From positions 64,001 to 128,000 of the forward strand of contig CAVQFQ010000010.1 of the NCBI GenBank assembly GCA_963711835.1: DNA of 64,000 nt, read 5' to 3'. A program made the position numbers and the translations under genes. This document shows positions 25,055-61,751 of this stretch, piece by piece. Source of the DNA: an uncultured delta proteobacterium. Its GTDB lineage: Bacteria > Desulfobacterota > RBG-13-43-22. Within the stretch, counting starts at the first letter, position 1; every line of letters begins with the position of its first letter. The notes beneath the pieces were generated by a model. The model was not told the origin of the DNA and did not search any database. It saw only the letters and a program-made list of their open reading frames with translations.

Positions 25055-25056
25055 TT

Positions 25057-27137: not shown

Positions 27138-27230
27138 AGCAGCTTGTTCTGACGATTTTGGCCCCAATGCTAAAATTCACCCCGGGTGAGGTTCGGTATT
27201 TAAAAATTTTCAATCAATTTTTACCCTTCG

Positions 27231-27377: not shown

Positions 27378-27429
27378 AATATAACCCACTTTTAAGTTGC
27401 TTTTTAAAGAGGGTTGGTCTATAGTCATT

Positions 27430-27730
27430 TTTGAAGATTCTTTGAGTAATCAGTAAATTATAAAAGAATGACCCGTTTTTTTCCCTTTAAGCACAGTCCC
27501 TTCAATAGGCCTGGGATTGGTTGATGAAAAAGGCCTAAAAATCCTCCTTTCATTGAAAGGAAGGAAAAAACTGTTTTCACCTGTCTCAAGGTTATTAGGC
27601 AGGATATTAAATAAAGTGATTCTTTTTAAAATAAAAATTACGAACGGTTAGGTAACTTATCCCCTTTTCCAACCCTTCTATTACGGTTATTAAATTTTTA
27701 ATAAAAAGTACTAATTATAATAAAGGAGAA
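27430..27730. other. Probable replication origin (oriC) unwinding region
   Basis: AT-rich non-coding DNA abutting dnaN; degenerate tandem box TTATCCCCTTTTCCAAC, then TAT-TAC-GGT-TAT-TAA trio-like repeats and an AT tract. Confidence 0.55.
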
Positions 27731-27738
27731 TAACAAAA

Positions 27739-28875: not shown

Positions 28876-28996
28876 CAACCCCTTCCTTACCCCCAACACC
28901 CTTGGTATCGCGGCCTTTGATAGGCGAGGTAATCGACGGCCGGGACGATACGCAAAAACAGGGAAAAAATCCATAAGGTATTAAAAAAAAGGTTGA

Positions 28997-31384
<2,388 letters not shown>

Positions 31385-31459
31385 AAAGACCAGGAAAATA
31401 CCTAACCAAACCCCTCGAACCCTGGACCCTCAGAATCCTTGAGCCCTCAAAGGAATTTT

Positions 31460-33892: not shown

Positions 33893-33894
33893 CG

Positions 33895-34923
33895 GTGTAC
33901 AAGATTAAAAAAAAGGAAACCGTCGGTGTTATCGGGGCCGGAAGCTGGGGAACGACCCTGGCCCGATTGCTGGCCCAAAACGGCGCGACGGTTCATTTAT
34001 GGTGCAATGAACCGGAAACGGCCCGGGACATCGACCGGGAGCGGGAAAACAAAACTTTTTTACCCGGGGTTCAGCTTCCCGCGGGCGTCATCCCCTCTAC
34101 GGAACTGGAAGAAGTAATCAGCCAAAAGGAAATGCTGGTGCTGGTGATCCCTTCGCATTTTTTTCGGGATGTGCTCTCCCGGATGAACCCGTACCTGTCT
34201 CGGATTAAAGAAGGCTGCCTCTGGATTTCGGCCACCAAAGGGATTGAGAATGACAGCCTCCTGACCATGACCGGGATTATGCGGGAGGTGCTGGGTCCCG
34301 AATGGCAGCCCGGCCTCGGATGCCTGTCAGGCCCCAGTTTTGCACAGGAGGTCTCCCGGGAACTGCCCACGGCGGTGACCCTCTCCTGCTTTCAGGATCG
34401 GACGGCCCAAAAAGCCCAACGCCTTTTTTCAAACCATTATTTCCGCGTTTATACCAATAGCGATGTGCTGGGCGTGGAAATGGGCGGGGCCTTAAAGAAT
34501 GTGATCGCCCTGGCGGCCGGGACTTCCGACGGCTTAGGCCTGGGACATAATACCCGGGCGGCCTTAATCACCAGGGGCTTGGCGGAAATCAGCCGCTTGG
34601 GGGAGAAAATGGGCGCCCAGCGGGCCACCTTTTTCGGCTTGGCCGGTATAGGCGATCTGGTGTTAACCTGCACCGGCGATCTCAGCCGGAACCGATCGGT
34701 GGGACTCCGGCTGGGCCAAGGAGAAAAATTACCCGCCATTCTTTCCTCCATGCACACGGTGGCCGAGGGGATTAAGACCACCCGCTCGGCCTATCAACTC
34801 GCCTTGCGGGAACGGATTGAAATGCCCATCGTGACCCAGATCTACGGCCTGCTCTATGAGGATCGGGACCCGCGCCGATCGGTCCATGATCTGATGACCC
34901 GGGACTTAAAAGCCGAAGAATAG
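33895..34923 (+). CDS. gpsA: NAD(P)H-dependent glycerol-3-phosphate dehydrogenase
   Basis: GAGSWGT; TKGIE; SGPSFA; GGALKNVIA; GDLVLTC; SRN. Confidence 0.98.
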   Translation: MYKIKKKETVGVIGAGSWGTTLARLLAQNGATVHLWCNEPETARDIDRERENKTFLPGVQLPAGVIPSTELEEVISQKEMLVLVIPSHFFRDVLSRMNPYLSRIKEGCLWISATKGIENDSLLTMTGIMREVLGPEWQPGLGCLSGPSFAQEVSRELPTAVTLSCFQDRTAQKAQRLFSNHYFRVYTNSDVLGVEMGGALKNVIALAAGTSDGLGLGHNTRAALITRGLAEISRLGEKMGAQRATFFGLAGIGDLVLTCTGDLSRNRSVGLRLGQGEKLPAILSSMHTVAEGIKTTRSAYQLALRERIEMPIVTQIYGLLYEDRDPRRSVHDLMTRDLKAEE

Positions 34924-37124: not shown

Positions 37125-38327
37125 TTAATCCCGTTCGATAATGGTGGTCATGCCCATGCCCCCGCCGACACACAGGGTGGCCAATCCCAACGACAGGTTC
37201 CGGCGTCTCATTTCATAAAGAAGGGAAATGATGATGCGGACTCCGGTGGCGCCGACCGGATGGCCGAGGCCGACACCGCTGCCGTTGACATTGGTGATGT
37301 CTCGATTCAGGCCCAGCCCCTGTTCACAGGCCAGATATTGGGCGGCAAAGGCCTCGTTGACTTCGATCAATTGGATATCCTTCAAGGTCAGGCCGGCCTT
37401 CTTAAGGCATTTTTCAGTGGCCGGCACCGGGCCGTAGCCCATGTACTTGGGATCCACACCGGCGACGGCCTGGGCCACGATCCTGGCCAGGGGCGTCAGG
37501 CCCAATTCCTGTGCCCTGGCCCGGGTCATAACGATGACGGCGGCCGCCCCATCGTTTAAACCCGAAGAATTGCCGGCCGTTACCGTGCCGTCTTTTTTAA
37601 AAGCCGGCGGCAATTTGGACAGATCGGCCATGGTCAACCCATAGCGGACATGCTCATCGGTCTCCACCATCCGGGGATCCCCTTTTTTCTGCGGAACGGC
37701 TACGGCCACGATCTCTTCTTTGAATCTGCCGGCCTTGATGGCGGCCTCGGCATTATGGTGGCTCCGCAAGGCGATAATATCCTGTTCTTCACGGGAGATC
37801 TGGTATTTTTCGGCCAGGTTCTCCGCGGTCTGGCCCATGATGTAGCCTTTTTTCTCCAGAAGGTTGCTCCCGGAATGAAGCATCTCCCACATGGCATCGG
37901 TCATCTGGCCGTGGGTCAATCGCTGTCCCCAGCGGGCCGTCATAAGGACATAAGGGGCCGAGCTCATGGATTCAACCCCGCCGGCTAACACGATTTGAGA
38001 GTCACCGGCCTTGATCTGCTGAACCGCAAAGGCCAGGGCCTGCATGGCGGAAGAACATTGGCGCTGAATGGTAACGGCCGGGACTTCGACCGGGATACCG
38101 GCTTTCAGGGCGGCGGTTCGGGCCGTATTGGCTTCGTCCGGGCACTGGACGCAATCGCCGAGGATGACATCATCCAACTGCTCTCCCGAGATACCGGCTC
38201 GTTTAAGGACCTCCACGATTACGGTTGCGGCCAACTGATGGGCCCGCATACTTTTGAGCGCTTCTCCGAACCGGCCGATAGGGGTCCGGGCCGCGGCCAC
38301 CATGACAACATCGTTTGGACTTTTCAA
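37125..38327 (-). CDS. Acetyl-CoA C-acetyltransferase (thiolase)
   Basis: QCSS active Cys; AGNSSGLNDGAA; NEAFAAQ; GHPVGATG; CVGGG. Confidence 0.97.
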   Translation of the reverse strand: MKSPNDVVMVAAARTPIGRFGEALKSMRAHQLAATVIVEVLKRAGISGEQLDDVILGDCVQCPDEANTARTAALKAGIPVEVPAVTIQRQCSSAMQALAFAVQQIKAGDSQIVLAGGVESMSSAPYVLMTARWGQRLTHGQMTDAMWEMLHSGSNLLEKKGYIMGQTAENLAEKYQISREEQDIIALRSHHNAEAAIKAGRFKEEIVAVAVPQKKGDPRMVETDEHVRYGLTMADLSKLPPAFKKDGTVTAGNSSGLNDGAAAVIVMTRARAQELGLTPLARIVAQAVAGVDPKYMGYGPVPATEKCLKKAGLTLKDIQLIEVNEAFAAQYLACEQGLGLNRDITNVNGSGVGLGHPVGATGVRIIISLLYEMRRRNLSLGLATLCVGGGMGMTTIIERD

Positions 38328-44301: not shown

Positions 44302-45627
44302 ATGGCTAAGGCAAAAATTTGGTTTATGGATGCCCGGGCGAAACGATTTTTGGAGTCCACAGCCATCAAAGGACGACAAATCGTGGAATACTCCGGTTGG
44401 TTGGATAACCTGCAAAAAGGGGACATTGTGGCCGTCAAGACCCACATGGGAGAGGCCTATAATGTGGGCTACCTGCGGCCCATCATCCTGCGAACCCTGG
44501 TGGAAGCCCTCAAGGCCAAAGGCTGCCGACCCTTTGTCACCGATACCACGACCATGCCCTATCATCCCTGGATCAGCCGCACCCTGGCCCTGGATCATTT
44601 GGAGACCGCCAATCGCAACGGTTTTAACCAGGGCACCATGGATTGCCCGGTCCTGATTGCCGACGGCTGGCTGGGGACCGATGATATTACCGTGGATTTA
44701 CAGGGCCGGGGAAATTATCTTAACAAGCAGTTCGTGGCCCGGGCTATTGCCGATGCCGATGCCGTTCTATCGGTCGCCCATTTCAAGGGCCATCCTGCCG
44801 GCGGTTTTGGGGGGGCGCTTAAGAATATCGGGGTAGGCTGCGCCAGCAAGCGGGGCAAAATGAACCTCCACGGGGCACTGGCCGGCGACAAGCCGGTTAT
44901 AGACCTTGCTCTCTGTCCTGGAAAAGAGTGTGACTGGTGGGAGACCTGCCAGGACTGCTGCCCGGAAGGGGCCATTCAGTTTACCGAAAAAGGGATTGAG
45001 ATCGATCAGGAGGCCTGTGTCTATTGTTTCGCCTGTGCCAACCTCTGTGTCAATATGGCCGGCGTAAAGGGGATCCAGCGTTTCGATCATTTGCCGGCCC
45101 TGGGCCGGAGAATCGCCGACTCGGCCCTGGCCATGATGATGACCAAAGAGGAGGGCAAGGTCTTCTTTTTAAACTTTGCCATGGATATCACCCCGGTCTG
45201 TGATTGCTATGGCTGGACCGATACGCCGATTGTCAACGGACTGGGTATCCTGGCTTCCTATGATCCGGTGGCCGTGGATAAGGCCTGTATCGATATGATG
45301 AACCAGGCCCCGGGGCTCATTAATTCCGAGGCCGAAGAGTTCGGCGCCCTGGAGCCCGGCTCTAAAAAACTGAACATCATCAAGGGCAAGGACATCGAAC
45401 CCCAGATCTACGGAGGGGTGGCCAATGGCCTGGGGTCCACCGACTACGAGATCGAAACGGTTCCCCAGGACCGGAGCCAGGAGGCCATCAATCAGTTTTA
45501 TCCGGAAGTACGGGCCCGAAAGCTGAAAGCCATGTATGCTAAAAATCACCCTTTAAGAGGCTTGGATACGGCCTCTTTCGGCAAGATCACCGAAGGGGTG
45601 ACCAATCCGAGGCATCCGAAAAAATAG
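44302..45627 (+). CDS. DUF362-domain Fe-S protein
   Basis: VAVKTHMGE; HFKGH; GFGGALKNIGVGC; ferredoxin insert; ITPVCDC; DPVAVD. Confidence 0.9.
   Translation: MAKAKIWFMDARAKRFLESTAIKGRQIVEYSGWLDNLQKGDIVAVKTHMGEAYNVGYLRPIILRTLVEALKAKGCRPFVTDTTTMPYHPWISRTLALDHLETANRNGFNQGTMDCPVLIADGWLGTDDITVDLQGRGNYLNKQFVARAIADADAVLSVAHFKGHPAGGFGGALKNIGVGCASKRGKMNLHGALAGDKPVIDLALCPGKECDWWETCQDCCPEGAIQFTEKGIEIDQEACVYCFACANLCVNMAGVKGIQRFDHLPALGRRIADSALAMMMTKEEGKVFFLNFAMDITPVCDCYGWTDTPIVNGLGILASYDPVAVDKACIDMMNQAPGLINSEAEEFGALEPGSKKLNIIKGKDIEPQIYGGVANGLGSTDYEIETVPQDRSQEAINQFYPEVRARKLKAMYAKNHPLRGLDTASFGKITEGVTNPRHPKK
45555..45627 (+). repeat. Direct repeat copy 1 (3' end of the DUF362 gene)
   Basis: 70/73 nt identical to 50243-50315. 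Confidence 0.95.
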
Positions 45628-45898
45628 TTTGGTGGGGCTTGAATCGGTTAACGAGGGGGCAGGCCGATTTTGCTTCAGAAAATCACGTTCACCTACAACT
45701 AAACGGAATCGGTGCGGTTAAAATTTATCGATTACCGAAGGAAATGTGCCAAGAAAGGCAGGACCAAATGCCCTGGCCCTGCCTTTGTTCTCTTCTGGGC
45801 TGTGGCGGCTTCTTTATAAGCAAAAGGGGATAGGTGTTGGAATTAATGGAGTCCTTCCCCCAAACCTCCGACCGAAGAAGGAATCCATTTTATTAGAT

Positions 45899-45956
45899 TC
45901 CTAACGTTCCGGTTCAGCGACGGCGGTACGCCGTCCGCTGGAACCGGTTGTTAGCT
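45899..45956 (-). mobile_element. attC: Integron attC recombination site (58 bp)
   Basis: Minus strand reads AGCTAAC-AACCG-GTTCCAGC-18nt-GCTGAAC-CGGAAC-GTTAGGA, i.e. R''/L''(extra base)/L'/R' with canonical spacers; 52 nt downstream of the katG stop. Confidence 0.85.
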
Positions 45957-46008
45957 GACCGTTTTTTCGCCGCCCTGTCAGAAGCCCTCGAAGACGTTTA
46001 TGCTACGA

Positions 46009-48206
<2,198 letters not shown>

Positions 48207-48367
48207 AATGTTTCCTCCTTTCGTTGTGTGAACTGTTGAACAGTGCCACTATGAATAATAGTGTAGTTTCCATCCGGAAATTTGAATTTCCGGACGGAAA
48301 CTAATCAAGTATTTTCGGAACCTGCCTTTTTAAATGAAACAGTCCGCTTCAAGTGTAAAGGACTACT

Positions 48368-48832
48368 TTACTTATTTTTCTTCTGACATTCCGGACAAAG
48401 ACCGAAAAAATCCAGGCGATGGTGCAGGATCTGGAAGCCGGTTTTCCGGCCCATTTCCTGGTTAAGGTCGCTGAGACCGGCCCATTTCGGGTCGACGATT
48501 TTTTTACAACGTATGCAGATGATATGCGGATGGGGAAAGGGTTTGTACCCGTCATAGCGGTTGCTTCCGTCCGGAAAACCCAGTTCCAAAACTTCATTGA
48601 GTTCCTTGAGCAGAATAATCGTCTTATATACAGTAGCCAGACTGGTTGTGGGAAAATCGGCCCTGACCCGCTCATAGACCTGGGCCACGCTCGGGTGCGT
48701 TTCATCCCGGGATAGGATTTTCAAGACCGCCAATCGTTGGGGGGTAAGGCGGAAATTTTTCTCCTTCACCCTGGAAAGCATAGTTTCCAGGCGATTGCCG
48801 TTTTCCCAGGAGGTGTCAGTGGATCTGGCCAT
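48368..48832 (-). CDS. perR: Fur-family regulator, probably PerR
   Basis: TPQRLAVL; HPS; SLATVY; HPHIICIRC; CPEC; directly upstream of katG. Confidence 0.85.
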   Translation of the reverse strand: MARSTDTSWENGNRLETMLSRVKEKNFRLTPQRLAVLKILSRDETHPSVAQVYERVRADFPTTSLATVYKTIILLKELNEVLELGFPDGSNRYDGYKPFPHPHIICIRCKKIVDPKWAGLSDLNQEMGRKTGFQILHHRLDFFGLCPECQKKNK

Positions 48833-48862
48833 GGTTAATATGACTAAAAAAATTATTTATGG

Positions 48863-48877
48863 AGAATTATTATTTCT
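48863..48877. promoter_or_regulatory. Fur/Per box-like 7-1-7 inverted repeat upstream of perR
   Basis: AGAATTA-T-TATTTCT (6/7 symmetric). Confidence 0.45.
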
Positions 48878-49219
48878 AAAGATATATTATCAGAAAGGGG
48901 CCGGTTGTCAAGAAAAATTATTTCAACCAGTGACTGTATCTCGCCGTCCTTCAAAAGGGCCTGGGTATGGACATCTCCGGATGCCTGGGGTTGTATGATC
49001 TGTCTTTAGGCAGATTTAATAAGATTTTGGGAAATACCAAAAAGGGTCCTACTCGGGGAACAGGCATCAAGGCAATGAAAACACTTAAACCCAAGTACAA
49101 TCTATGCATGAAAACCTACCGGAAAGAGAATCTCAGCACCTCGAAGTGAGAAAGTGGGCGATTTGTTAGCGGCCACATGTCAGACATATTCCAAACTCGA
49201 TCCGATCAAGACATCTGCT

Positions 49220-49924
49220 TCACCGGTTCGACTGGAAGCGTTCTTCCTTCCATGGATCGGCGGAGTTACTGTAACCTTGCCTTTCCCAGAATCCGGGCTC
49301 ATCGCGAGAGGTGACTTTGACAGCCTCCAGCCACTTGGCACTCTTGTAGAAGTAGCGATCGGGGATCACGACACGCACGGGGGCGCCGTGCGCCTGTTGC
49401 AGTTTCTTACCAAAGAAACTGTGCGCAAGGATCACGTTCCCCTTTTGAGTTTCGCTTATGGGAACATTGCTGGTGTAGCCTCCGGCGGCCTCAAAAATGA
49501 CAAAACCTCCACTTCTGCGAGGCCTGACTCTATCCATGATTGTTGTCAGGCGAACGCCACTCCAGCGGGAATCCAGAAGAGTCCAGCCGGTGACACAGTG
49601 AATATCACAGGTGATATGCACCTGGTCCAGGTTGAGCAGCTCCTGGTAGGAAAGGACGACCGGTCTTTCCACCTCACCATGGACGCGCAGGCTCCAGTTC
49701 GCAACAGTAGCGGTTCCAGGCGTGCCGCCCATATCCTGAATCTTTTCGACCGCCTGCTGCCCGGGGGGGAGACGGGGCCTGCCGTCCGGTCTGGTGTTGG
49801 CTGCCAGAGCACGTTGCTCCGCATCCGCGAGTTTTACGAAAGCTCCAGGCAACCCTATGCTCACTATGGTTCCGCCTGCTGCGGCCAGGAAGGTGCGCCT
49901 GGAGATCTTCTGGTCTTTTTGCAT
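49220..49924 (-). CDS. Tat-exported sulfite oxidase-family molybdopterin oxidoreductase
   Basis: SRRTFL Tat motif; RLPPGQ; DIHCVTGW; HGAPVR; YKSAKW; GFWERQGY. Confidence 0.92.
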   Translation of the reverse strand: MQKDQKISRRTFLAAAGGTIVSIGLPGAFVKLADAEQRALAANTRPDGRPRLPPGQQAVEKIQDMGGTPGTATVANWSLRVHGEVERPVVLSYQELLNLDQVHITCDIHCVTGWTLLDSRWSGVRLTTIMDRVRPRRSGGFVIFEAAGGYTSNVPISETQKGNVILAHSFFGKKLQQAHGAPVRVVIPDRYFYKSAKWLEAVKVTSRDEPGFWERQGYSNSADPWKEERFQSNR

Positions 49925-50108
49925 TGCCCCTCCTTTGTCAGTTGAGTGGGTCCTTGCCCCCTCGGATCAGCCAGAGCATCCGGGGTGATAGTTAAAATGG
50001 GGACGCTGGTAAGAAAGTAAGAAATTCATGGTTAACTCCAACTGATTCTCCTGAGCGATGTCCCTGCCTCCCTGGCAGCCCAATAGCAAAGAAATTTGTA
50101 GGAGGAAT

Positions 50109-50227
50109 AGGGCCGCTGTTAGGTTATTAACTTTTCAACAGATGGAAACCCTTTTATCTCTGCGGCATCTTTCTCCAATACCACCCCTGACTCATCTCGT
50201 TCAACCTAATAACCTGACAGCGTCCCC
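50109..50227. mobile_element. Small MITE/REPIN-like element
   Basis: 20-bp terminal IR AGGGCCGCTGTTAGGTTATT / AATAACCTGACAGCGTCCCC (17/20 match). Confidence 0.55.
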
Positions 50228-50242
50228 TTTCTCTGTAACTTC

Positions 50243-50315
50243 AAGAGGCTTGGATACGGCCTCTTTCGGCAAGATCACCGAAGGGGTGAGCAATCCGAGG
50301 CATCCGAAGAAATAA
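50243..50315 (+). repeat. Direct repeat copy 2 (orphan 3' end of the DUF362 gene)
   Basis: Encodes RGLDTASFGKITEGVSNPRHPKK*; 70/73 identical to 45555-45627. Confidence 0.95.
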
Positions 50316-50388
50316 TTTAAAGGTGTAATTTCTATAAGGGTGGATAGGGCAGAAACCGGCGGCCGGCGGATTCCCGAGCGGAGTTAGC

Positions 50389-51021
50389 TCACCCGATCAT
50401 CTCTTCGTACAATCCCCGTTTATCAATGATCCGGCGGGCCTTGAACTGGGTCCGTTCCAGGCTGCCGGGCGGCAAGGTCTGAACCAGGACCCGAACCCCC
50501 AGGACTTTCTTCAAGGCCTCGGCCAATCTCAGCTTTAAGGTCGCCGCCTGATGCTCTTCCAGGCCCAGGGCCATTTCGACCTGGACCACCAGCTCATCCA
50601 TGGTTTTTTCCCGGGCAATGATGATCCGGTATTCTTCCCCGCAGCCGGCCTGGGCCCGGATGATGTCCTCGATTGCGCTGGGATAAACGTTTTCTCCCCG
50701 GATGGTGAACATATCATCGGACCGGCCGTAAATCCCTCTCGGAAGCCGGGGGTAGGTCCGGCCGCAGGGGCAAGGATCATTGACCCAGGTCGTCAGGTCA
50801 CCGGACCAGAAACGAATCATGGGCTGAGAATCCCTTTCCAGATGGGTATAGACGAGCACCCCCTGTTCACCATAAGGGACCGGCCGTTTGGTTTCCTGAT
50901 CGACCACTTCCGTATAGACCAGATCCTGCCAGAGATGCATCCCGCGCCGCTCCCCGCATTCACTATTGGACATCCAGGGGGTCATTTCAGCCGTGGAGCC
51001 GGAATCAACACAAACGCCTCC
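50389..51021 (-). pseudogene. Duplicated 3' part of the PaaK-like CoA ligase gene
   Basis: 50398-51021 is a near-identical copy of 52016-52639 (offset 1618); no 5' half. Confidence 0.93.
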
Positions 51022-51175
51022 GTTTGAGGGGACGTTGGTGCAACCGTTGCTTCGTTTAGATAACTATCCTTGGCTTTTCGACATTGATCGAGAATGTCCT
51101 TGGCTCAGATATTCAACACGCAACTGATAACATAGCCGTTTTTTACCTATTTCCAATATGTTCCAGACACTCTGC

Positions 51176-51233
51176 TCGGAACCGTATAACTCAGCGGTGG
51201 GTACCAGTCATCCTCTGGTTTTTTTTGTTGGCC
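51176..51233 (-). mobile_element. Degenerate attC-like site overlapping the DUF2442 stop
   Basis: GGCCAAC-AAAAA-AAACCAGA-18nt-GCTGAGT-TATACG-GTTCCGA; same 58-bp spacing as the katG attC. Confidence 0.5.
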
Positions 51234-51526
51234 AATGTTTCGACCTTATTGAATCTTGTATCACGACTAAAAGGTCGTGGTGCGGGAATACCAAAAAGCA
51301 TACCTTCAGCACTGATATCCTCATCTATATCAGGCCAATGTACCCCATGACCATCTCCTATAATTCTATAATTGGAGCGTTGCTTAGGTGTTGCATCGGA
51401 CAATCGCCAAGACCACGCAAGCGGGACACTTATTATCCGACCATCAACAAGTTGAGCCGTAATTGTGTCTTTGCTGACTTTTATATCCTTAATTTTTTCT
51501 TCTTGTATTTTCACCACAGTGCTCAT
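51191..51526 (-). CDS. DUF2442 protein (toxin-antitoxin component)
   Basis: LVDGRIISVPLAWSWRL; GHGVHWPDIDEDIS. Confidence 0.9.
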   Translation of the reverse strand: MSTVVKIQEEKIKDIKVSKDTITAQLVDGRIISVPLAWSWRLSDATPKQRSNYRIIGDGHGVHWPDIDEDISAEGMLFGIPAPRPFSRDTRFNKVETLANKKNQRMTGTHR

Positions 51527-51746
51527 ACCACGCCTCCATTATCTTGTCTTTGTTGTTTTTAATTATTCCTCGTATGGTATTGAGTTCTTTTGGAGAAAAA
51601 CCATAATTTTTTACCAATACAACAGGCTCCAGCCAGAATTTGCAGATCATCTTCTCTCTTTGAGTATGCACATGCATTTGCTCATTACAATCAAAGCTGA
51701 AGAAGAAAAAGCGATAGGGTCCTCTGATTTTCTTGACCGTTGGCAT
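51489..51746 (-). CDS. DUF4160 protein (HicA-like toxin-antitoxin component)
   Basis: MPTV; YRFFFFS; MHVH; KFWLEPV; EAWYEH; overlaps DUF2442. Confidence 0.9.
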   Translation of the reverse strand: MPTVKKIRGPYRFFFFSFDCNEQMHVHTQREKMICKFWLEPVVLVKNYGFSPKELNTIRGIIKNNKDKIMEAWYEHCGENTRRKN

Positions 51747-52000
51747 ATCGTTCCCTATTTAAGCATATACGATCATCGGGCAATCATTCCTGCAGACCCT
51801 CACTTCGAAGAACCCCTTTTTCATTCCTTTTTATCATAAAGTCAATAATATTCAAATTATTTTCATTGGTTAGCGTTTGAAATCTGGCATGGCAAGAGAA
51901 AATTTAAAACAAGGCTTCAAGGAAAATTATTCGCGCAACCTGACGTCATTTGAATTTAAAATTACCCAGTAGTTACCCAAAACGCGACATCCATCACCGG

Positions 52001-53412
52001 TCACTTCTTTCCTACCATCTCTTCGTACAATCCCCGTTTATCAATGATCCGGCGGGCCTTGAACTGGGTCCGTTCCAGGCTGCCGGGCGGCAAGGTCTGA
52101 ACCAGGACCCGGACTCCCAGGACTTTCTTCAAGGCCTCGGCCAATTTCTTCTTTAAGGTCGCCTCCTGATGATCTTCCATGCCCAGGGCCGTTTCGACCT
52201 GAACCACCAGCTCATCCATGGTTTTTTCCCGGGTAATGATGATCCGGTATTCTTCCCCGCAGCCGGCCTGAGCCCGGATGATGTCCTCAATAGCGCTGGG
52301 ATAAACGTTTTCTCCCCGGATGGTGAACATATCATCGGACCGGCCGTAAATCCCTCTCGGAAGCCGGGGGTAAGTACGGCCACAGGGACAAGGGTCATTG
52401 ACCCAGGTCGTCAGGTCACCGGACCAGAAACGAATCATGGGCTGAGAATCTCTTTCCAGATGGGTATAGACGAGCACCCCCTGTTTACCATAAGGGACCG
52501 GCTTTTTGGTCTCCGGATCGACCACTTCCGTATAGACCAGATCCTGCCAGAGATGCATGCCCTGACGCTCCCCGCATTCACTATTGGACATCCAGGGGGT
52601 CATTTCAGCCGTGGAGCCGGAATCAATACAAATGCCTCCATAGCTCTTTTCAATAAGTCGCTTGGTGGAGGGAATGCCCGCACCCGGTTCTCCGGAGAAA
52701 AAAAGGATTCGAAAGGCAAAATCTTTTTTGGGGTCCAAGCCGAGGGTCCGGGCCCTTTCGGCTAAGTAGAGGCTGTAGGAAGGAGTGCCGTAAAAAACAG
52801 AGGGCTTCATCTGCCGGATCCAGTCGATGGCCCGTTCGGTCTGACCCGGAACTCCGGCGCCGAAAGGGAAACAGACCGCACCCAGGCGTTCCCCTCCGGC
52901 CAAGGCCCCCCAACTGCCCATATATAAGCTGAAAAAGGAGCCGATAAAAAGGATGTCGTTCGGCCGGACCCCGAAACTCCACATGATCCGGGCGTGGGCC
53001 TCGGCAATCCGGGTCATGTCTCCCCGGCTGATACCGAAGGCCGTTGGACGACCGGTGGTTCCGGAGGTGCCATGAAGCCGTTGAATATCAACGATGGGAA
53101 CACAGCTATAACTGCCGAAAGGGAGGATGTCTCAGCCTGATCCTCGCGGATTTCTTCTTTGTACAAAAAGGGGATCCTCTCAAAATCGCTCAAAGAACGG
53201 ATATTCTGTGGATGAACTCCGGCCTTGTTCCACTTTGCGCGATACAAGGGGGCCTTTTCATAGGCATGGGTCAGTTGGGCTCTGAGTTTGGGCAGGATGA
53301 TCTTTTCCGATCGCTCCTGCGGGTCCATGGTCTCTATATCCCGGTTCCAGTAGGGATCAGAGGGGGATGGATAGTAATGAGGATTATGTTCTGGGGGCCA
53401 TAAGAGGGTCAT
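52001..53412 (-). CDS. Phenylacetate-CoA ligase (PaaK)-family acyl-CoA ligase, frameshifted near 53115-53135
   Basis: Restored P-loop HGTSGTTGRP; GTPSY; GEPG; GRSDDM; RGENVYPS; KARRIID. Confidence 0.9.
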
Positions 53413-53441
53413 GAAAAACCTCCATCTTAAAAAAGTTTGAG

Positions 53442-53846
53442 CTATGGAACCAACGAGCGCCTGGCGGCTTCCTGGATTTCCTGCACAATGGTCTTCATCG
53501 GTGTATCCGGACCGTAGATTTTTTCAATGCCTTGTTCCAATAGATAGGGGATGTCCCGCTCGGGGATGATCCCGCCCAGGAAGACCTTGACGTCTCTGAG
53601 CCCTTTATCCCTCAATAAACGGACCACCTTCGGAGCCAGGACACGATGGTTTCCGCAGAGGGTGCTTAACCCGACCAGATCGACATCTTCCTGCAGGGCG
53701 GCCTGGGCAATCTGTTCCGGAAATTGATTGCCTAAATAAATGACCTCCATCCCGGCTTCCCGCAGGAACTGGGCTACCGTTACCGCCCCGCGCCAGTGGA
53801 TATCCAGGCCCAACTTGGTGATGAGAACGCGTATTTTTCTTTCCAT
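53442..53846 (-). CDS. B12-binding small subunit of an acyl-CoA mutase
   Basis: GLDIHWRG (DxHxxG); GMEVIYLG; GLS; GGIIP. Confidence 0.95.
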   Translation of the reverse strand: MERKIRVLITKLGLDIHWRGAVTVAQFLREAGMEVIYLGNQFPEQIAQAALQEDVDLVGLSTLCGNHRVLAPKVVRLLRDKGLRDVKVFLGGIIPERDIPYLLEQGIEKIYGPDTPMKTIVQEIQEAARRSLVP

Positions 53847-54054
53847 TATTTGTCCTTCATAAATACAGATCATCTCGGAGACTACTTGTCAGTGATCTCT
53901 GGAATGGCTTTCCAATGGACGTTGAATCTAGCTTTGAGCAGCCTGGAATCCAGTCTGAACTTTAATTCACTGGATTCCGGCTTCTGGGGAATAGACTGCT
54001 GCTTTAATGACATTGTAAAGACGTGTCTGAGACTTTTTGTTTTTATCCAGTTCT

Positions 54055-55762
54055 TCAAGTAATAAGCGGTGAATGCCAGAGGCCGAATTCATTCCGGAAA
54101 AGTTCCGAGATTTCGCCCAGGGTGGCCAGGGACTTGACGGCCTCCAGGGTGTAGGGGTAGAGATTTTCCTTGGAATGGCATTTGCCTCTGAGATGGTCAA
54201 GGGCCTTAGTGATTTTTCCGGAATCTCTTTCCCGACGCAATCGTTCCAGTTTAACCCTTTGACGGGATTCGGTCTCCGGATACTCAAAGACCTCTATGGG
54301 CTGGGATGGAGCCGGAACCCTGGAAGGCATTGACCCCCACCACCTTGATCTCCCCGCTTTCAATTTTTCGCTGATAGTCGAATTGGTAAGAGGCGATTTC
54401 CCGATGCAGCCAACCCTTCTCGGCCGCCGCAACAATCCCTCCCTGGTCTTCAATTCTCCGGATATAGGCCTCGATACGTTTTTCCAGTTCGGCGGTCAGA
54501 TATTCCAGATAGTAAGAACCGGCCAGCGGATCAACCGTCTGGGTCACCCCGGTTTCCTGCTGGATGATCTGCTGAGTTCTTAGGGAGACCAGGGCAGCCG
54601 TTTCCGTAGGGGCCGAATAGGCCTCGTCAAAGGAATCGATGTGCAGGGACTGGGCCCCTCCAAAAACAGCCGCCAGGCCCTGGAGAGCGGATCGGGCAAT
54701 ATTGTTCAGAGGCTCGGTGGCCGGCAAGGTAATCCCGGCGGTCTGAACATGGAAACGCATCAGCCAGGATTTCGGGTCTTTGGCTTTAAAGCGTTCCCTC
54801 ATGATCCGGTACCAGATCTTCCGGGAGGCCCGGCATTTAGCCACTTCTTCGAAGAAGTCGTTATGAAGATCCCAGAAAAAGGAAATCCGGGGGGCAAAGC
54901 CGTCAATCTCCCGGCCTCTGCTCAGCAACTCCTCGGCGGTAGCGACGGCATTGGCGATGGCGATGGCCACCTCGGCCACGGCATCGGTGCCGGCCTCCCT
55001 CAGATTATAGCCGTTCAAGCTGATAGGATTCCAGCGGGGCAGATATCGGGTGATCCAGTCCACCACATCGCATTGCATCCGGAAGGAAACGGCCGGAGGG
55101 AGCATTTCAGGAGCACTTCCGATGACCGTCTCCATGAGAAAGTCGTTCTGGCAGGTGCCGGATAAGCGGGTATAGGGGATGCCCCGCGCCTCGGCCAGGG
55201 CAAAGTACATCCCCGGGATAATCAGGCTGGTACTGGGAAGGTGGGTAACGATGGAAGTGCTGATACCGGCCAGGTCAATCCCGGAAAAAAAGGCCTCCAT
55301 ATCCGGAAGGGAATCCACGGCCGCCCCGCATTGACCGACATTGCCTTCCGCTTCCGGATCATCGGAATCATAGCCCCGGATGGTGGGCAGATCAAAGAGG
55401 ATGCTCACCCCGGTGGCCCCGTGATCCAGGAGATATTTAACCCGCAGATTGCAGTCTTCCGGGGCCCCTAAGCCGGCTAACTGCCGGATGGTAAAGGGTC
55501 GGCCCTGATACATGGTGGGATAAATTCCCCTGACAAAGGGGGGCGCCCCGGGGAATCCCGAATCCTGCAAATAATCCAATTCCTGGATGTCCAGTGGCGT
55601 GTGGAGGAGCTTGACCGGAATCCCTGAAGAAGTGATGTGAACGGCCTCCTCTTTCTTTTCTTCCGACTTAAGCTTTTTCTTGTGCCATTCCTGGTAATGG
55701 GTCCGGATCTCTTGAATCTGCGCTTCATTAAAAAGGAGGTTTTTAGGCTGGTTGTCTTTCAT
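54055..55762 (-). CDS. Adenosylcobalamin-dependent acyl-CoA mutase large subunit, frameshift near 54310
   Basis: PFVRGIYPTMY; RQLAG; FDLPT; QND; FFEEVAK; RFHVQTAG; GGAQSLH; DPLAGSY; ATLGEI. Confidence 0.95.
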
Positions 55763-55856
55763 CTCTTTTTCCTTTGTCCGGCGATAAAGAAAAAAGCCCC
55801 CTTTCCGGTGAAGGAGAAGAGGGCCGGGAGCGGACTTATGATTTTTTTTGACCCGG

Positions 55857-57344
55857 CTAAACCCCTAAAAGCCTCTGGGAAAGTTCCTGGTCGGAAAGGA
55901 GTTCCTGCGGGGTGCCTTCGTAAACAATCTGCCCTTGATCGATGACATAAACCCGATCCGCCAAGGCCAAAGCCATGAGGGCATTTTGTTCTACCAGGAG
56001 AATAGTAACCCCGGCTTTATTGATTTCCAGGATGATCTCGGCTACCTGGCGGACGATGAGCGGGGCCAACCCCTGGGAGGGTTCATCGAGCAACATGCAG
56101 CTCACCTTCCCCATGAGGGCCCGGGCTAAGGCCAGCATCTGTTGTTCTCCTCCTGAGAGACGGTTGCCTTTATGATGGCTGCGGTCTTTCATGGCCGGGA
56201 AATATTCGTAGGCCTGGTCCAATTGGTCCCGCTTCTCCTGAGCCGGGATGCCTTTTAAGAAAAAGGGCAATTCCAGGTTTTCATGAAGGGTGAGATTCTG
56301 GAAGATACGGCGCTCGGCCGGCACCAGCGACAGGCCGCTTTTGACGATCCTGTTGGTCGGCTTGCCGTTGATGGTTTCATTATTAAAAGTGATGACTCCC
56401 GCCCGGGGCGGAGTCAGGCCCAGGATGGAGCGGAGGGTGGTGGTCTTACCGGCCCCGTTTCTGCCTAACAGGGAGACGATTTCCCCTTGACGAACCATTA
56501 AGGAGATATCCTGCAGGACGTGGCTTTCTCCATAATAGGTGTTGACCTTTTCCAGTCGCAGGATCTCCCTTTTGGTGCTTTTGGCTCGCTCGCTTTTTTT
56601 CTGGGATAAGGAGAATCCTTTTTCCATTCCTCCCAGATAAGCCTTCTGGACCTCTTCATTCTGTTGAATTTCTTCCGGAGTCCCCTCGGCCAGTTTCCGG
56701 CCGAAATACAAAACGGTTATGGCGTCTGAAACCTTCAGCACCACATCCATTTTATGTTCGATGAGAATGATGGTATAGCCTTTTTCGTTTTTTAATTTAT
56801 TGATCAGTTCGACGGTTCGTAACGATTCCTCCGGAGGCAGGCCGGAGGTGGGTTCATCCAGAAGGAGCAATTCGGCCTTGCAGGTCAGGGCAATGGCAAT
56901 ATCCAGATGGCGCTGGTCCCCGTGGGAAAGATTTCCAGCCACCTCATTGGTCTTGTCGGCCAGACCGACATCCTCCAGGATCTCCATGACTCGGTCCCGG
57001 GCTTTCGAGCCCTTGTGGTAATACATGGCCGGAATAAGGACATTCTCAAAAACCGTAAGTTCCGGGAAGATGGCGGTAATCTGAAAAGAGCGTCCGATGC
57101 CTTTCCGGGCTATCTTATGGGGTCTAAGGCCGGTAATGTCTTCCCCTTTAAAGCGGATCCGTCCTTTACTGGGGGGATGGACACCGGTGAGGAGGTTGAA
57201 AAAAGTGGTCTTGCCCGCTCCATTGGGTCCGATAATGGATCGGAGTTCCCCTGGGTTGATGGAAAAATTGATATCCTGGACCGCTTCCAAGGAACCAAAA
57301 TTTATTCCCAGCTCCGTTGTTTCCAGTAATTTCATATAGGCCAT
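55857..57344 (-). CDS. Fused LivG-LivF double ABC ATPase
   Basis: Two Walker A motifs (GPNGAGKTT, GRNGAGKTT) and two signatures (LSHGD, LSGGE) in one ORF. Confidence 0.93.
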   Translation of the reverse strand: MAYMKLLETTELGINFGSLEAVQDINFSINPGELRSIIGPNGAGKTTFFNLLTGVHPPSKGRIRFKGEDITGLRPHKIARKGIGRSFQITAIFPELTVFENVLIPAMYYHKGSKARDRVMEILEDVGLADKTNEVAGNLSHGDQRHLDIAIALTCKAELLLLDEPTSGLPPEESLRTVELINKLKNEKGYTIILIEHKMDVVLKVSDAITVLYFGRKLAEGTPEEIQQNEEVQKAYLGGMEKGFSLSQKKSERAKSTKREILRLEKVNTYYGESHVLQDISLMVRQGEIVSLLGRNGAGKTTTLRSILGLTPPRAGVITFNNETINGKPTNRIVKSGLSLVPAERRIFQNLTLHENLELPFFLKGIPAQEKRDQLDQAYEYFPAMKDRSHHKGNRLSGGEQQMLALARALMGKVSCMLLDEPSQGLAPLIVRQVAEIILEINKAGVTILLVEQNALMALALADRVYVIDQGQIVYEGTPQELLSDQELSQRLLGV

Positions 57345-57419
57345 CCTTCATAAGACCGGCTTTCCTCAGTTGCGCAAGATATGGTTCCAGGAGGAAACCC
57401 GTTTAATTATTTTAAAGAA

Positions 57420-58382
57420 CTAACGCTTTTTCTGGACAAATCCCCAAATCCCTCTTGGGAAGAAGAGGATAAAAATGATGAAGATCGCCCCGACGAAGAA
57501 TTGCCAGTATTTCGTATAATAGGAGATGAAATTCATCAGATAAGTAACCACTCCGGCTCCCAAAATAGGGCCAAAAAGGGTTCCCAAACCACCCACCAGT
57601 CCCATAATGACCACGTTTCCCGACCGAACCCAGTCCAGGGTCTGGGGGAAGATATAACGGAGGAACATACCATAAAGGGTGCCGGCTACAGCGGCAAAAA
57701 CCCCCGAAATAATAAAAGAGTATAGTTTGTAACGCCGTACATTATAACCTACAACCTGGGCCCGTTTTTCATTTTCCCGGATTGTTTTCAGGACCTGGCC
57801 GAAATGAGACTCGACCAGCCAGTATTTAACCAGAGTAGCGGCCACAAAGAAAACAAAGACAAAATAAAAGAAACTCAGATCATTTTTTAGATTCCAGTTA
57901 AAAAGACCCAGCGAGATGCTATCCCTTGGAATCCCGGTCAGGCCATCCTCCCCTCCGGTAACCGTCTTCCAGCGGGAGGCAATAAAAAAGAACATCTGCC
58001 CAAAGGCTATGGTGAGCATGGCAAAATAAATGCCGGTCTTGCGTATAATGAGGAGCCCGATGATGACAGCGCCCAGGGTACCTACCAGAATCCCAATCAG
58101 CATGCCCAGGAGAATGGACACTTTAAAATTGATGCAGACAATACCCATGGTATAGGCAGCCAGCCCGAAATAAGCGGCCTGGCCGAAGGAGAGTATGCCG
58201 GTGTAGCCCAGGAGTAAATCAAAACCCAGGGCGAAGATGGCAAAAATAACCATCTCAGTGGCCAAGCCGGTATAGCCGCCGATAAAGGGGATGATTTTAG
58301 GCCAAACCGCCACCAGGGCGAAAAGGATGACCATTTTTATTAAGTCTTTGGATCTCGATTTTTCAACAGGTGTTGTTGTCAT
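57420..58382 (-). CDS. LivM-type ABC permease
   Basis: GYTGILSFGQ; YFAMLT; TGGEDG; IRENE; GPILGA. Confidence 0.95.
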   Translation of the reverse strand: MTTTPVEKSRSKDLIKMVILFALVAVWPKIIPFIGGYTGLATEMVIFAIFALGFDLLLGYTGILSFGQAAYFGLAAYTMGIVCINFKVSILLGMLIGILVGTLGAVIIGLLIIRKTGIYFAMLTIAFGQMFFFIASRWKTVTGGEDGLTGIPRDSISLGLFNWNLKNDLSFFYFVFVFFVAATLVKYWLVESHFGQVLKTIRENEKRAQVVGYNVRRYKLYSFIISGVFAAVAGTLYGMFLRYIFPQTLDWVRSGNVVIMGLVGGLGTLFGPILGAGVVTYLMNFISYYTKYWQFFVGAIFIIFILFFPRGIWGFVQKKR

Positions 58383-59272
58383 TCCAATAACCCTTCAACC
58401 CCGGCGATACCTCTCGGGCGGACTAATAATACGATCGCCATCAGAATAAAGACGATGACATCCGACATGGCCGAAAAAACCTCCACGGAAAAACTGACGA
58501 CTACCCCGACCAGTAAACCTCCGATGACTGCGCCCCAGAAACTGCCCATGCCCCCGATGATAACCACTACGAAGCAGGACATAATGATGCCGGTTCCCAT
58601 AGGCGGATAGACACCTTGAATAGGGGCATTAAGGACCCCGGCCACAGCCGCCAGGGCCGATCCGATCCCAAAGGTGATGGTAAAAAGAAGATTGATGGGA
58701 ATGCCCAGGGCAATCACCATTTCCCGGTCAAAGGTCCCGGCCAGGATGGTTTTCCCCATGGGGGTTTTTTGAAAGAAAAACCAGAGAGCAACCAGCAGGG
58801 CGGAGCAAAAAACAATGATAAACAAACGGTATTTGGAAAATATGAAGAGCTTTAAGTCAATGATGCCGCTGAGAAATTCAGGAGGACTCATGGGATAGGG
58901 GGCATCCCCCCAGGTCATACGAATCATATCCTCAATCATCAGGGCCAGCCCGAAGGTCAGGAGCATGGTGTGCAACGGGTCCCTTTTGTAAAGGGGCCTG
59001 ATTAAGGTGGCCTCCATTCCCATGCCGATCAGTCCCAGAAGAATGGGCCCGATGATCAGGCAGGGCCAGAAACCGGTATAGTTAAATAAGGTAACGACGC
59101 TATAGGCCCCCAAGGCGTATATAACCCCGTGGGTAAAGTTTATGACCCGCATCAGCCCGAGGATGATGGTCAGTCCAATGGCCATCAGAACTAAGAGGGT
59201 GCCCAGGGCAAAGCCGTTGAGCAATTGGTTCATAATTGTGGGCAGGGAGAGATTCAAACTTATCATAGCCAC
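58379..59272 (-). CDS. LivH-type ABC permease
   Basis: AIGLTII; INFTHG; VVIIGGMGS; RPRG. Confidence 0.95.
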   Translation of the reverse strand: MAMISLNLSLPTIMNQLLNGFALGTLLVLMAIGLTIILGLMRVINFTHGVIYALGAYSVVTLFNYTGFWPCLIIGPILLGLIGMGMEATLIRPLYKRDPLHTMLLTFGLALMIEDMIRMTWGDAPYPMSPPEFLSGIIDLKLFIFSKYRLFIIVFCSALLVALWFFFQKTPMGKTILAGTFDREMVIALGIPINLLFTITFGIGSALAAVAGVLNAPIQGVYPPMGTGIIMSCFVVVIIGGMGSFWGAVIGGLLVGVVVSFSVEVFSAMSDVIVFILMAIVLLVRPRGIAGVEGLLE

Positions 59273-59287
59273 CCCGGCAGTCAGGTC

Positions 59288-59319
59288 GGCAGCAGAGAAG
59301 AGGGACTTCTCTGCTGCCT
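59288..59319. terminator. Stabilising or attenuating hairpin after the substrate-binding protein gene
   Basis: GGCAGCAGAGAAG-loop-CTTCTCTGCTGCC perfect 13-bp stem. Confidence 0.65.
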
Positions 59320-59337
59320 TGGATGAAGGATTAATTT

Positions 59338-60669
59338 TTATTTGAACAGGTCATAGGGTTCCAGTTCGTGACCGCCCTCTTTCTTCCATTCGTCGAATGA
59401 AGGGGCGCACTCGTCACCCGGGACATGGCCCAGGATCTTGAAGAGATCGGCCCAGGTCTTGAAGTTGGCCGGGTATTGGGCCTGGGCCACAATGACATCC
59501 TGGATGTTTTGATGATCGAAGTTGCGCCAGTAGCTGGGGGTCCATTTCAAACCGTCAAATTTCCAGCCTTCCAGGGCCTTAATCACCGGAATCATATCCG
59601 TGGTCTTGGCCCGGGTGATGGCCTCAAAGAGCTGTTGGTGGGTAATGTATCCCAAATAATGACGGTAGGAGGCGTCCCATTGAGGGGGTTTATTGGCTCC
59701 AAAACGCTTCCGCAAGGCCGCCCGCAATTTCTGGCTGCCCGGGGTATCCACCGTACAATCCCAGGAAAGCCCCCAAACCCCGTCGGCCGCCGCCCCGACT
59801 CCTTTCATCATGGGTGATCCGGAAAGGGGACCGCAGAGGTGAATGTCTTTGGCCAGGCCGAATTCCTTGAACTGCTTGACCAGGTTGACCTGATCGGCTC
59901 CATAACAGTTACAGCTTAATAAATCAGGCTTAAGGCCCCGGGCCTTGATCAGGTTGGCTGAGAAGTCCTTGGTTCCCAGAGGGGTAAAGTCATTACCGAT
60001 CTCCTTGCAGCCGTATTTGGTTAAGGCACGGTTCATGGAGGTCCGGGCCGTATGCCCCCAGGTGTAGTCGGCGGTGATGTGATAAACTGATTTGGGTTTC
60101 CAGTTTTTTCCCAGCCAGGCCCCTACGGCCGTAGAAAGCATCCAGTTTTGTGAGGTGGTCCGGAAGGTGGTCCGGTGGGATTTCTGCATGGTGGTGTCAT
60201 CGGAATGACTGCCGAAGGCCATAAAAAGCTTTTTCTCTTTAAAGGCTTCTTCGGCAATAGCCAGGGTGACACTGGAGGTCAGGGTCCCGGTCAAGAAATG
60301 GACATTGTCCCTTTTAATCAACTTAATCGTCTTCTGAACCCCGATGCCCGGATTACTGGGGGCGTCTTCGGTGATCATTTTAATTTCCCGGCCGAGTACC
60401 CCGCCTTTGGCATTCCATTCCTCATTGGCCAGCATGGCCCCTTCCATCTCATCTTGACCGGAATCGGCATAGGGCCCTGATATCGGTTCAATATTGCCGA
60501 TCAGGATAGGCGGTCCCGAAAAGGCTTTGAGGTGCGGTGCACTCAAAAACTCCGACAACTGGAAGGCCGTAAGCCCGGCCGCCACCACACCGGTGCGGGC
60601 CAGGAATTGACGTCTGGTCAATCCGGAATGGGTTCCCATTTCTCCATCTTTTTTCTTTTCGTCTTTCAT
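59338..60669 (-). CDS. Tat-exported LivK-type periplasmic substrate-binding protein
   Basis: TRRQFL Tat motif; GGVLGR; ADYTWG; PLGTKDFS; ATG at 60669 with a G-rich RBS. Confidence 0.92.
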   Translation of the reverse strand: MKDEKKKDGEMGTHSGLTRRQFLARTGVVAAGLTAFQLSEFLSAPHLKAFSGPPILIGNIEPISGPYADSGQDEMEGAMLANEEWNAKGGVLGREIKMITEDAPSNPGIGVQKTIKLIKRDNVHFLTGTLTSSVTLAIAEEAFKEKKLFMAFGSHSDDTTMQKSHRTTFRTTSQNWMLSTAVGAWLGKNWKPKSVYHITADYTWGHTARTSMNRALTKYGCKEIGNDFTPLGTKDFSANLIKARGLKPDLLSCNCYGADQVNLVKQFKEFGLAKDIHLCGPLSGSPMMKGVGAAADGVWGLSWDCTVDTPGSQKLRAALRKRFGANKPPQWDASYRHYLGYITHQQLFEAITRAKTTDMIPVIKALEGWKFDGLKWTPSYWRNFDHQNIQDVIVAQAQYPANFKTWADLFKILGHVPGDECAPSFDEWKKEGGHELEPYDLFK

Positions 60670-61139: not shown

Positions 61140-61751
61140 ATGGCCGTTATGCCATTTTTCACTTTCTACCGGTTACAATTAAATGAATGCACCCCCCAAG
61201 AATTCTTGCGCCTTTGGGCAGCGTTATACCGGGAAGGACCGGTCAATGACGATCTTTTGAGACAGAATTTAAACCCGGGCCGAAAGCTGGAGGACCGGCA
61301 CCTCGAACCATTGCTGTGCTGGCGCCGGCAGCAATCCTTGGAGGAAAAAGATCTGAACCTGGTTAAACGACTGGGCCAATCATTAACAATAATCAACGCC
61401 TTCAGAATGAAAACTAAAATCTCCGAAGAAGAGACCCTCGATTTTTATGACCAGGCGACTGCCTGGGTCCCTGACGACTTGATCCTGAGGACCTTTATCC
61501 TCCACCTGGCCAGGCCCCACCAGTTCCCTCTCTTTGATGAGAAGATCTATCTGGCCCACCAGGTGATTACCGAGCTTCCCCCTAAAAAACCCAGGCCATT
61601 AGATCCTGATAATGATGCCGCTTATTTTTCCTTTATGAAGACCTTTTTCCAGATGGTTGCGGCCGGGGCCAAACCGGAGGATATCCTCTATCGAGCCCTT
61701 TCAGCCTTTGGTCATTTCTTGAGCCGTTATCAGTCCGTTGTACAATTTTAA
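61140..61751 (+). CDS. Hypothetical protein
   Basis: AGGAGG RBS; 203-aa ORF; LHLARPHQFPLFD motif. Confidence 0.65.
   Translation: MAVMPFFTFYRLQLNECTPQEFLRLWAALYREGPVNDDLLRQNLNPGRKLEDRHLEPLLCWRRQQSLEEKDLNLVKRLGQSLTIINAFRMKTKISEEETLDFYDQATAWVPDDLILRTFILHLARPHQFPLFDEKIYLAHQVITELPPKKPRPLDPDNDAAYFSFMKTFFQMVAAGAKPEDILYRALSAFGHFLSRYQSVVQF

Follow-up and report, generated by a model that had tools for sequence, protein, structure and literature searches.

Known systems and the locus studied

Mutases acting on 2-hydroxyisobutyryl-CoA, and their pairing with a 2-hydroxyisobutyrate-CoA ligase (HCL), are already known. In Aquincola tertiaricarbonis, the cluster hcmB-hcl-meaH-hcmA encodes HCL (PDB 6HDW) together with the mutase HcmA (Ile90/Asp117/Gln208/His245). 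RcmAB of Kyrpidia tusciae DSM 2912 (D5WTR7) and Bacillus massiliosenegalensis JC6 is a 2-hydroxyisobutyryl-CoA mutase that prefers (R)-3-hydroxybutyryl-CoA, and operons that join mutase and HCL genes with a GntR regulator are a known type of cluster for 2-hydroxyisobutyrate (2-HIBA, the free acid, a fuel-additive breakdown product) (PMC7176365). In sulfate reducers, the mutase was earlier described only in acetone degradation, without HCL, by Desulfococcus biacutus and Desulfosarcina cetonica (Ga0122881_105216/105217), where the thioester is made in the cell from acetone by a thiamine diphosphate (ThDP) enzyme. Here we analyse a seven-gene operon located in a 64,000-nucleotide stretch of DNA (hereafter the window; positions 64,001 to 128,000 of contig CAVQFQ010000010.1, assembly GCA_963711835.1) from an uncultured sediment deltaproteobacterium that has genes for sulfate reduction. 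Our analysis corrects the annotation of two of its genes, labelled methylmalonyl-CoA mutase and phenylacetate-CoA ligase. With a probability of about 0.72, the operon imports free 2-HIBA, activates it, isomerises it to 3-hydroxybutyryl-CoA, and oxidises it via thiolase and the Wood-Ljungdahl pathway. This reading rests on gene content, orthology, residues, and context, all of the chemistry being deduced from orthology, and implies that the operon likely lets a strict anaerobe feed on 2-HIBA by already known enzyme types.

Active site and kinship of the mutase

A sequence-only reading of this DNA had described a co-oriented run of seven genes, with the motifs RQLAGLG, QNDFLMETVIG, and NGYNLRE in the mutase large subunit and DIHWRG in the small one. 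All of them are present, and the seven genes lie on the minus strand, from 60669 to 52001, in the order given beforehand (Table 1). Alignment to the PDB 5REQ/1REQ and 4R3U chains places L95, G215, and N253 of the window protein at positions 89, 207, and 244 of methylmalonyl-CoA mutase, bearing out the Leu/Gly/Asn assignment that had been made by hand; there is a one-residue insertion after position 207 and Arg occurs in neither register. The Tyr89/Arg207/His244 triad of methylmalonyl-CoA mutase is absent and the protein reaches 451 bits against the equivalog NF006944, for a cut-off of 876, so that the claim that the enzyme is not a methylmalonyl-CoA mutase and lacks the carboxylate-binding Arg stands; that its substrate is a monocarboxylate also appears right. 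The three residues are invariant in 120/120 listed homologues (68-97% identity), which argues that they are not noise, and in the same proteins L122 and an inserted VTHLPST motif show little or no variation.

The large subunit is 63% (299/471) identical to the K. tusciae homologue P0338 (WP_013074530.1, UniRef100_D5WTR7), named RcmA in the strain table of the supplement to PMC11599936, whose corresponding residues are I90, V117, V167, H169, G210, Y247, N248, and F291; the two proteins agree at 18/21 tabulated pocket-region positions. It is closer still to the D. cetonica mutase (68% identity, 19/21 positions), which has the same Leu/Gly/Asn (L101, G221, and N259). The window residues L95, L122, V172, H174, Y252, and F296 carry the same numbers as the first-shell residues mutated in RcmA of B. 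massiliosenegalensis (I95, V122, V172, H174, Y252, and F296; PMC11599936 source data), and the whole RcmA first-shell set (Ile/Leu89, a hydrophobic residue at 117, Val-Thr-His, Gln197, Gly207, Tyr243, Asn244, and Phe) is found. At two first-shell positions Leu takes the place of Ile and Val, likewise in the D. cetonica enzyme. Within the clade, Leu89 is a frequent variant: of 99 further homologues, 44 have I/V at positions 95/122, 40 have L/V, and 15 have L/L, the other signature residues being constant. Leu or Ile, Gly, and Asn together with VTH thus read as the signature of RcmA-type 2-hydroxyisobutyryl-CoA mutases. RcmAB also shares with the window the two-subunit layout, including a separate B12-binding subunit with a DxHxxG motif (DIHWRG), and, as a cluster type, the HCL gene in the same operon (PMC7176365). 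The window system differs from it in having Leu95/Leu122 for Ile90/Val117, an operon led by an ATP-binding cassette (ABC) importer of the HAAT family with neither meaH nor gntR, and a strictly anaerobic host with dsrA.

In a quick maximum-likelihood tree (71 rows, SH-aLRT support only), the window protein lies in a 41-row clade with the D. cetonica mutase (support 100), within a 57-row clade with K. tusciae RcmA (95), outside of which fall HcmA and Xaut_5043 (44% and 40% identical to it, respectively). It thus falls within a clade that contains characterised enzymes sharing its active-site residues, an outcome that the sequence-only reading had itself named as refuting it. The term uncharacterised, used in the sequence-only reading, does not hold for an active site whose Gly207/Asn244 recur in K. 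tusciae RcmA and whose Leu/Gly/Asn recurs in the D. cetonica mutase; nor does the bulky, pivalate-like or 2-arylpropionate-like substrate proposed with it, since both relatives act on the C4 compound 2-hydroxyisobutyryl-CoA. MAF34037.1, 70% identical to the window protein, is listed as an unpurified "putative Hcm" candidate (PMC11599936), and therefore the deltaproteobacterial group had already been placed with the Hcm enzymes by others. A search of 50%-identity clusters yielded no close full-length clade member.

A sister clade at ~50% identity, from Rokubacteria/Methylomirabilota and Limnocylindria (loci L044, L045, L046, and L054), reads RPLAGYG, either VTCNP or VVCNP, and GYN, with Thr at 207; it is a stronger candidate than the window gene for a mutase not yet characterised. 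Within 21 kb, locus L054 carries four distinct mutase large subunits. The IaaGH/indoleacetate system (PMC8360864) was also considered and set aside, as it is described with a dicarboxylate mutase and other partner genes.

Identity of the ligase

The sequence-only reading had likened the ligase to 2-hydroxyisobutyrate-CoA ligase, and indeed the best PDB match of its 338-aa part is HCL of A. tertiaricarbonis (6HDW, E 4.4e-120), well ahead of the best PaaK (3.4e-52); an intact relative matches 6HDW with E 3.5e-163. Tyr164 and Ser239 are the distinctive pocket residues of HCL, a pair that makes its pocket smaller (PMC8388817). We took Y175 and S250 of the 6HDW chain as these residues, by an 11-residue tag offset; both are kept in the window ligase, in SLYMGSWG and LFFSGEPG, whereas PaaK has Phe and Gly there. 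The hcm-cluster ligases of Methylibium and Xanthobacter are moreover 55-56% identical to the window protein. By score, identity, and pocket residues, the window ligase is HCL-like, and it is predicted to activate 2-HIBA. The partner mutase of HCL in A. tertiaricarbonis, HcmA, is only 44% identical to that of the window.

These residues also bear on the pivalate or 2-arylpropionate mutase mentioned above, which we consider extremely unlikely. In its favour is the likeness to Xaut_5043/5044 of Xanthobacter autotrophicus, the pivalyl-CoA mutase, which has, like the window system, Leu at 89 (L87), no Arg207, split subunits, and a PaaK-like ligase nearby. Nevertheless, besides its modest identity and position outside the clade, Xaut_5043 has Asn at 207, Gln-His at 243/244, and no VTH motif, the ligase near it is only 29% identical to that of the window, and the polar, small HCL pocket speaks against an aryl acid. 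Pivalyl-CoA mutase identity is thus largely refuted by identities, tree position, and pocket residues.

Link to the mutase of the acetone pathway

The D. cetonica mutase compared above comes from contig BBCC01000052, whose large subunit, small subunit, and short-chain dehydrogenase/reductase (SDR) compute to 64.7, 14.5, and 28.0 kDa, the same masses as those given for acetone-induced proteins in Table 1 of PMC7888143; the computed pI values are 0.1-0.5 below the printed ones. That study lists the acetone-induced mutase under tags 105217/105216, MeaB under 105215, and the SDR under 105214, reports that B12-dependent isomerisation of 2-hydroxyisobutyryl-CoA was measured in extracts, and puts the mutase at 85.5% identity with its D. 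biacutus counterpart, which had been confirmed through heterologous production (PMC7888143). The D. biacutus enzyme has been called RcmAB-like, and the organism has no HCL (PMC7176365). In addition to large-subunit identity, Leu/Gly/Asn, and clade, the window and D. cetonica share the small subunit, 58% identical and reading LDIHW in both. The difference lies in the origin of the thioester: the acetone degraders make it with the ThDP enzyme, whereas the window has HCL and an importer. We detected no orthologue of the acetone-cluster ThDP enzyme, used as query, in the 89% complete source genome (best 25-29%) nor in the three mutase-bearing genomes among 20 of the same family (best 30%), so that imported acid should be the source of the thioester.

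The D. cetonica orthologue is induced also on butanone and both pentanones (PMC7888143), which would give C5 and C6 thioesters. This induction, and the room left by Gly at 207, would suit a larger tertiary 2-hydroxy acid (2-hydroxy-2-methylbutyrate or its C6 homologue) as main substrate of the same enzyme families, with 2-HIBA as a side substrate. Such a preference is unlikely, as K. tusciae RcmA has the same Gly, L95/L122 are larger than I90/V117, and a smaller pocket is attributed to the Tyr/Ser pair of HCL (PMC8388817). With 2-HIBA as the main substrate, the C5 homologue 2-hydroxy-2-methylbutyrate is likely a co-substrate.

Gene neighbourhoods across the clade

Of the 159 loci that we examined, 107 fall in the clade (≥58% identity to the window protein) and the 52 more distant ones were dropped; removal of near-identical loci left 75, whose kinship means that they are not independent. 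Within flanks of up to 10 kb, 28 of them have HCL with the mutase, 11 a class I CoA-transferase pair, 8 the ThDP enzyme, and the other 28 none of the three; no locus combines two of these. The ThDP figure is a minimum, since the D. cetonica gene lies outside its locus. In the 41 loci with longer flanks, the respective figures are 18, 8, 7, and 8. Among 45 clade loci from genomes, six have the mutase beside the ThDP enzyme, a radical SAM protein, MeaB, and the SDR, and one of the 45 is that of D. cetonica (L022). An enzyme activating the free acid thus adjoins the mutase in 39/75 loci versus 8/75 for the acetone enzyme, which suggests that sulfate-reducer lineages scavenge free 2-HIBA. In ten loci (L006, L009, L012, L014, L018, L025, L026, L028, L030, and L035), often with a sigma-54 PAS regulator, the mutase directly follows the CoA-transferase pair, a candidate ATP-free 2-HIBA CoA-transferase, an arrangement for which we found no report in the literature examined. 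In six others (L037, L040, L041, L169, L175, and L181), an HpaB/4-hydroxybutyryl-CoA-dehydratase-like gene comes after HCL.

Orthologues of the window binding protein (87-94%) occur in 5/75 loci, all of the window sub-lineage (L001, L002, L042, L124, and L125), where they precede the mutase. In three of these five (L001, L002, and L125), a methylmalonate-semialdehyde dehydrogenase (MMSDH) gene, above the TIGR01722 cut-off, precedes the transporter; DUF362 follows the ligase in L001, L002, L042, and L125, and GlcD does so in L001, L002, and L042, with GlcF beside GlcD in sister loci. This company, and the L-lactyl-CoA side activity of B. massiliosenegalensis and K. tusciae RcmA, could point to secondary 2-hydroxy acids, that is, a natural lactyl-CoA/3-hydroxypropionyl-CoA or 2-hydroxybutyryl-CoA/3-hydroxyisobutyryl-CoA mutase partnered by the semialdehyde dehydrogenase and a GlcD/GlcF-type dehydrogenase. 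We regard this as rather unlikely: the pocket signature LLVHQGYNF recurs unchanged in the acetone enzyme of D. cetonica and in 63/75 clade loci, MMSDH accompanies only 3/75, and the narrowing mutations V122I, V172L, and I95M/F drop lactyl-CoA turnover to <10% (PMC11599936 source data). In the window itself, unlike L001, L002, and L042, DUF362 is inverted and faces away from the ligase, and MMSDH lies on another contig of the genome, C15, with another GlcD/GlcF/ABC set; these two features loosen the link. The C15 block (23664-34166) comprises GntR, MMSDH (94-95% identical to those of L001/L002), GlcD- and GlcF-like genes, and a second Tat-type HAAT ABC transporter. It is a hydroxy-acid module whose first two genes sit ahead of the mutase operon in relatives and whose GntR is the orthologue of that in the sister loci. 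One reading of the whole is a general 2-hydroxy-acid scavenging region, with the dehydrogenase for secondary acids and the ligase and mutase for tertiary ones. That lactate/3-hydroxypropionate (or 2-hydroxybutyrate/3-hydroxyisobutyrate) are the native substrates of RcmAB and HCL in this sub-lineage, with the semialdehyde dehydrogenase and GlcD/GlcF taking part, seems distinctly unlikely; if true, there would be a natural pathway for a lactyl-CoA mutase reaction published in 2024 as new-to-nature, and a faster, ready-made scaffold for synthetic carbon assimilation. For DUF362, a PDB search gave no characterised relative, and no paper with this term appeared among the matches listed.

Proposed pathway and genome context

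In the favoured pathway for 2-HIBA, the Tat-exported binding protein and LivHM/LivGF would bring in the acid, and the ligase would convert it with ATP to 2-hydroxyisobutyryl-CoA, the Tyr/Ser pocket holding the 2-hydroxyl. The adenosylcobalamin mutase would then carry out a radical 1,2-shift of the thioester group to yield 3-hydroxybutyryl-CoA, probably the (R) form by likeness to RcmAB, which a dehydrogenase would oxidise to acetoacetyl-CoA and a thiolase would cleave into two acetyl-CoA, to be oxidised through CO dehydrogenase/acetyl-CoA synthase (CODH/ACS) with sulfate as acceptor. The thiolase and Wood-Ljungdahl genes invoked in the sequence-only reading are both located in the window (37128-38327 for thiolase, 15762-24038 for CODH/ACS), and dsrA is found in the genome above its cut-off, along with five MaoC-domain and seven 3HCDH matches. 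Contig C25 would supply MeaB and the adenosyltransferase; it has the single MeaB match of the genome, beside another mutase, and a CobA-type adenosyltransferase; a search of the genome for a PduO-type one found none. Three other mutase large subunits (whole-length or split) have Tyr or Phe at 89 and lie beside or apart from their own small subunits, and a fourth is on C15.

Several points weigh against this pathway. L95/L122 differ from I90/V117 of K. tusciae RcmA, and the stereo- and chain-length preference may differ accordingly from that enzyme. The link to D. biacutus runs via D. cetonica, whose activity comes from extracts and not from a purified enzyme. The acetone-cluster SDR, a 3-hydroxybutyryl-CoA dehydrogenase, has no orthologue in 4/4 genomes (best 37%; 36% here). 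The MMSDH ahead of the transporter in three of the five sister loci is superfluous for 2-HIBA degradation. The binding protein is without a characterised close relative and only 23% identical to one adjoining a Xanthobacter hcm cluster. Finally, the source genome is 89% complete and 6.4% contaminated, and the operon could be a dead copy in this strain.

Integrity of the reading frames

Neither enzyme gene is intact in the assembly: the mutase falls into open reading frames (ORFs) of 492 and 132 aa through one extra base near 54307-54311, and two extra bases (53120 and 53131) interrupt the ligase. These breaks, the absence of the sister-loci GntR from the locus, and the duplication of the ligase 3' end around an inserted gene pair would fit a pseudogene cluster, as the sequence-only reading had allowed. 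However, contigs from 4/4 runs covering 52900-54700 lack all three extra bases and those of run X1 lack both ligase ones, although these runs represent related strains, about 95-98% alike, rather than the source reads. Intact mutase relatives of 568 aa occur at 96-97% identity, and 14/15 listed members of the P0002 cluster have this length, the remaining one being a 248-aa piece on a 1-kb contig. The only full aspS match of the genome is likewise split into two frames, as are katG and glcD in the window. Since these genes are split too and related strains are intact, assembly indel errors are the simpler reading; the three extra bases are probably such errors, and a pseudogene cluster in this strain is unlikely. 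RNA-library contigs cover parts of the mutase, ligase, and ATPase genes but cannot show transcription and are not counted as support.

Relevance for fuel-additive degradation

We found no report of an operon combining HCL, RcmAB, and an importer, or of sulfate-reducer growth on free 2-HIBA, in a literature from which most subscription papers, among them the primary reports on the RcmAB, HCL, and D. biacutus enzymes, were out of reach. According to PMC10894111, the anaerobic pathways for tert-butyl alcohol (TBA) and ethyl tert-butyl ether (ETBE) are unknown and anaerobic TBA metabolites undescribed. In anoxic microcosms little hcmA signal was obtained, and anaerobic mutases were suspected to be missed by the hcmA assay (PMC5852185). 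The oligonucleotides of this assay match Methylibium hcmA exactly, but even their best placements on the window gene leave 8, 6, and 9 mismatches, so that the published quantitative PCR would miss these genes. These mismatches, and the pathways reported as unknown, make rcmA-hcl a candidate marker and a target for enrichment. Only the 2-HIBA step is covered by the operon, which leaves the anoxic attack on TBA unexplained.

Operon layout and neighbouring genes

Table 1. Predicted genes of the operon and the partial ligase copy (window coordinates)
Feature	Coordinates	Strand	Support
Solute-binding protein, HAAT family (Peripla_BP_6)	59338..60669	-	Pfam PF13458, E 2.5e-72
LivH-type permease	58379..59272	-	PF02653; UrtB/LivH models
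LivM-type permease	57420..58382	-	PF02653; UrtC/LivM models
Fused LivG-LivF ABC ATPase, 495 aa	55857..57344	-	Two ABC_tran stretches
Putative RcmA-type 2-hydroxyisobutyryl-CoA mutase large subunit, MM_CoA_mutase family	54055..55762	-	
Putative B12-binding small subunit, RcmB type, DxHxxG motif DIHWRG	53442..53873	-	TIGR00640 above cut-off
Putative 2-hydroxyisobutyrate-CoA ligase (HCL) orthologue, PaaK-like	52001..53412	-	PDB 6HDW match
Second copy of ligase-gene 3' part, 5'-truncated	50398..51021	-	Last 624 bp, 95% identical

The binding protein carries the twin-arginine signal motif TRRQFL. Its best PDB match reaches only E 2.5e-24, with no characterised relative among the structures, and its ligand is presumably 2-HIBA or related small hydroxy acids, which makes it a candidate 2-HIBA binding protein. 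The fused ATPase is a single ORF of ~495-503 aa also in the five sister loci, and the small subunit matches PDB 4R3U_C with E 5e-27. A promoter and terminator scan remained at chance level (10 vs 7.8 and 12 vs 13.3), and a hairpin between the ATPase and mutase genes (55817-55797) was accordingly dropped as evidence.

The partial ligase copy is no separate enzyme. The duplication (50398-52639) flanks a DUF4160/DUF2442 gene pair, a possible toxin-antitoxin, and contigs of related strains skip either the ligase duplicate or the whole insert (joints 50436-51022 and 50314-51994). On the other side of the operon, a 203-aa gene without family (61140-61751) is divergent from the binding protein and has the same place in L001, L002, and L042. 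Genes for katG and Fur/PerR-like and MsrP-like proteins (44302-50318) are bounded by DUF362 on one side and, on the other, by an 80-bp stretch that repeats its 3' end at 95% identity; they resemble an oxidative-stress island integrated at the end of the DUF362 gene.

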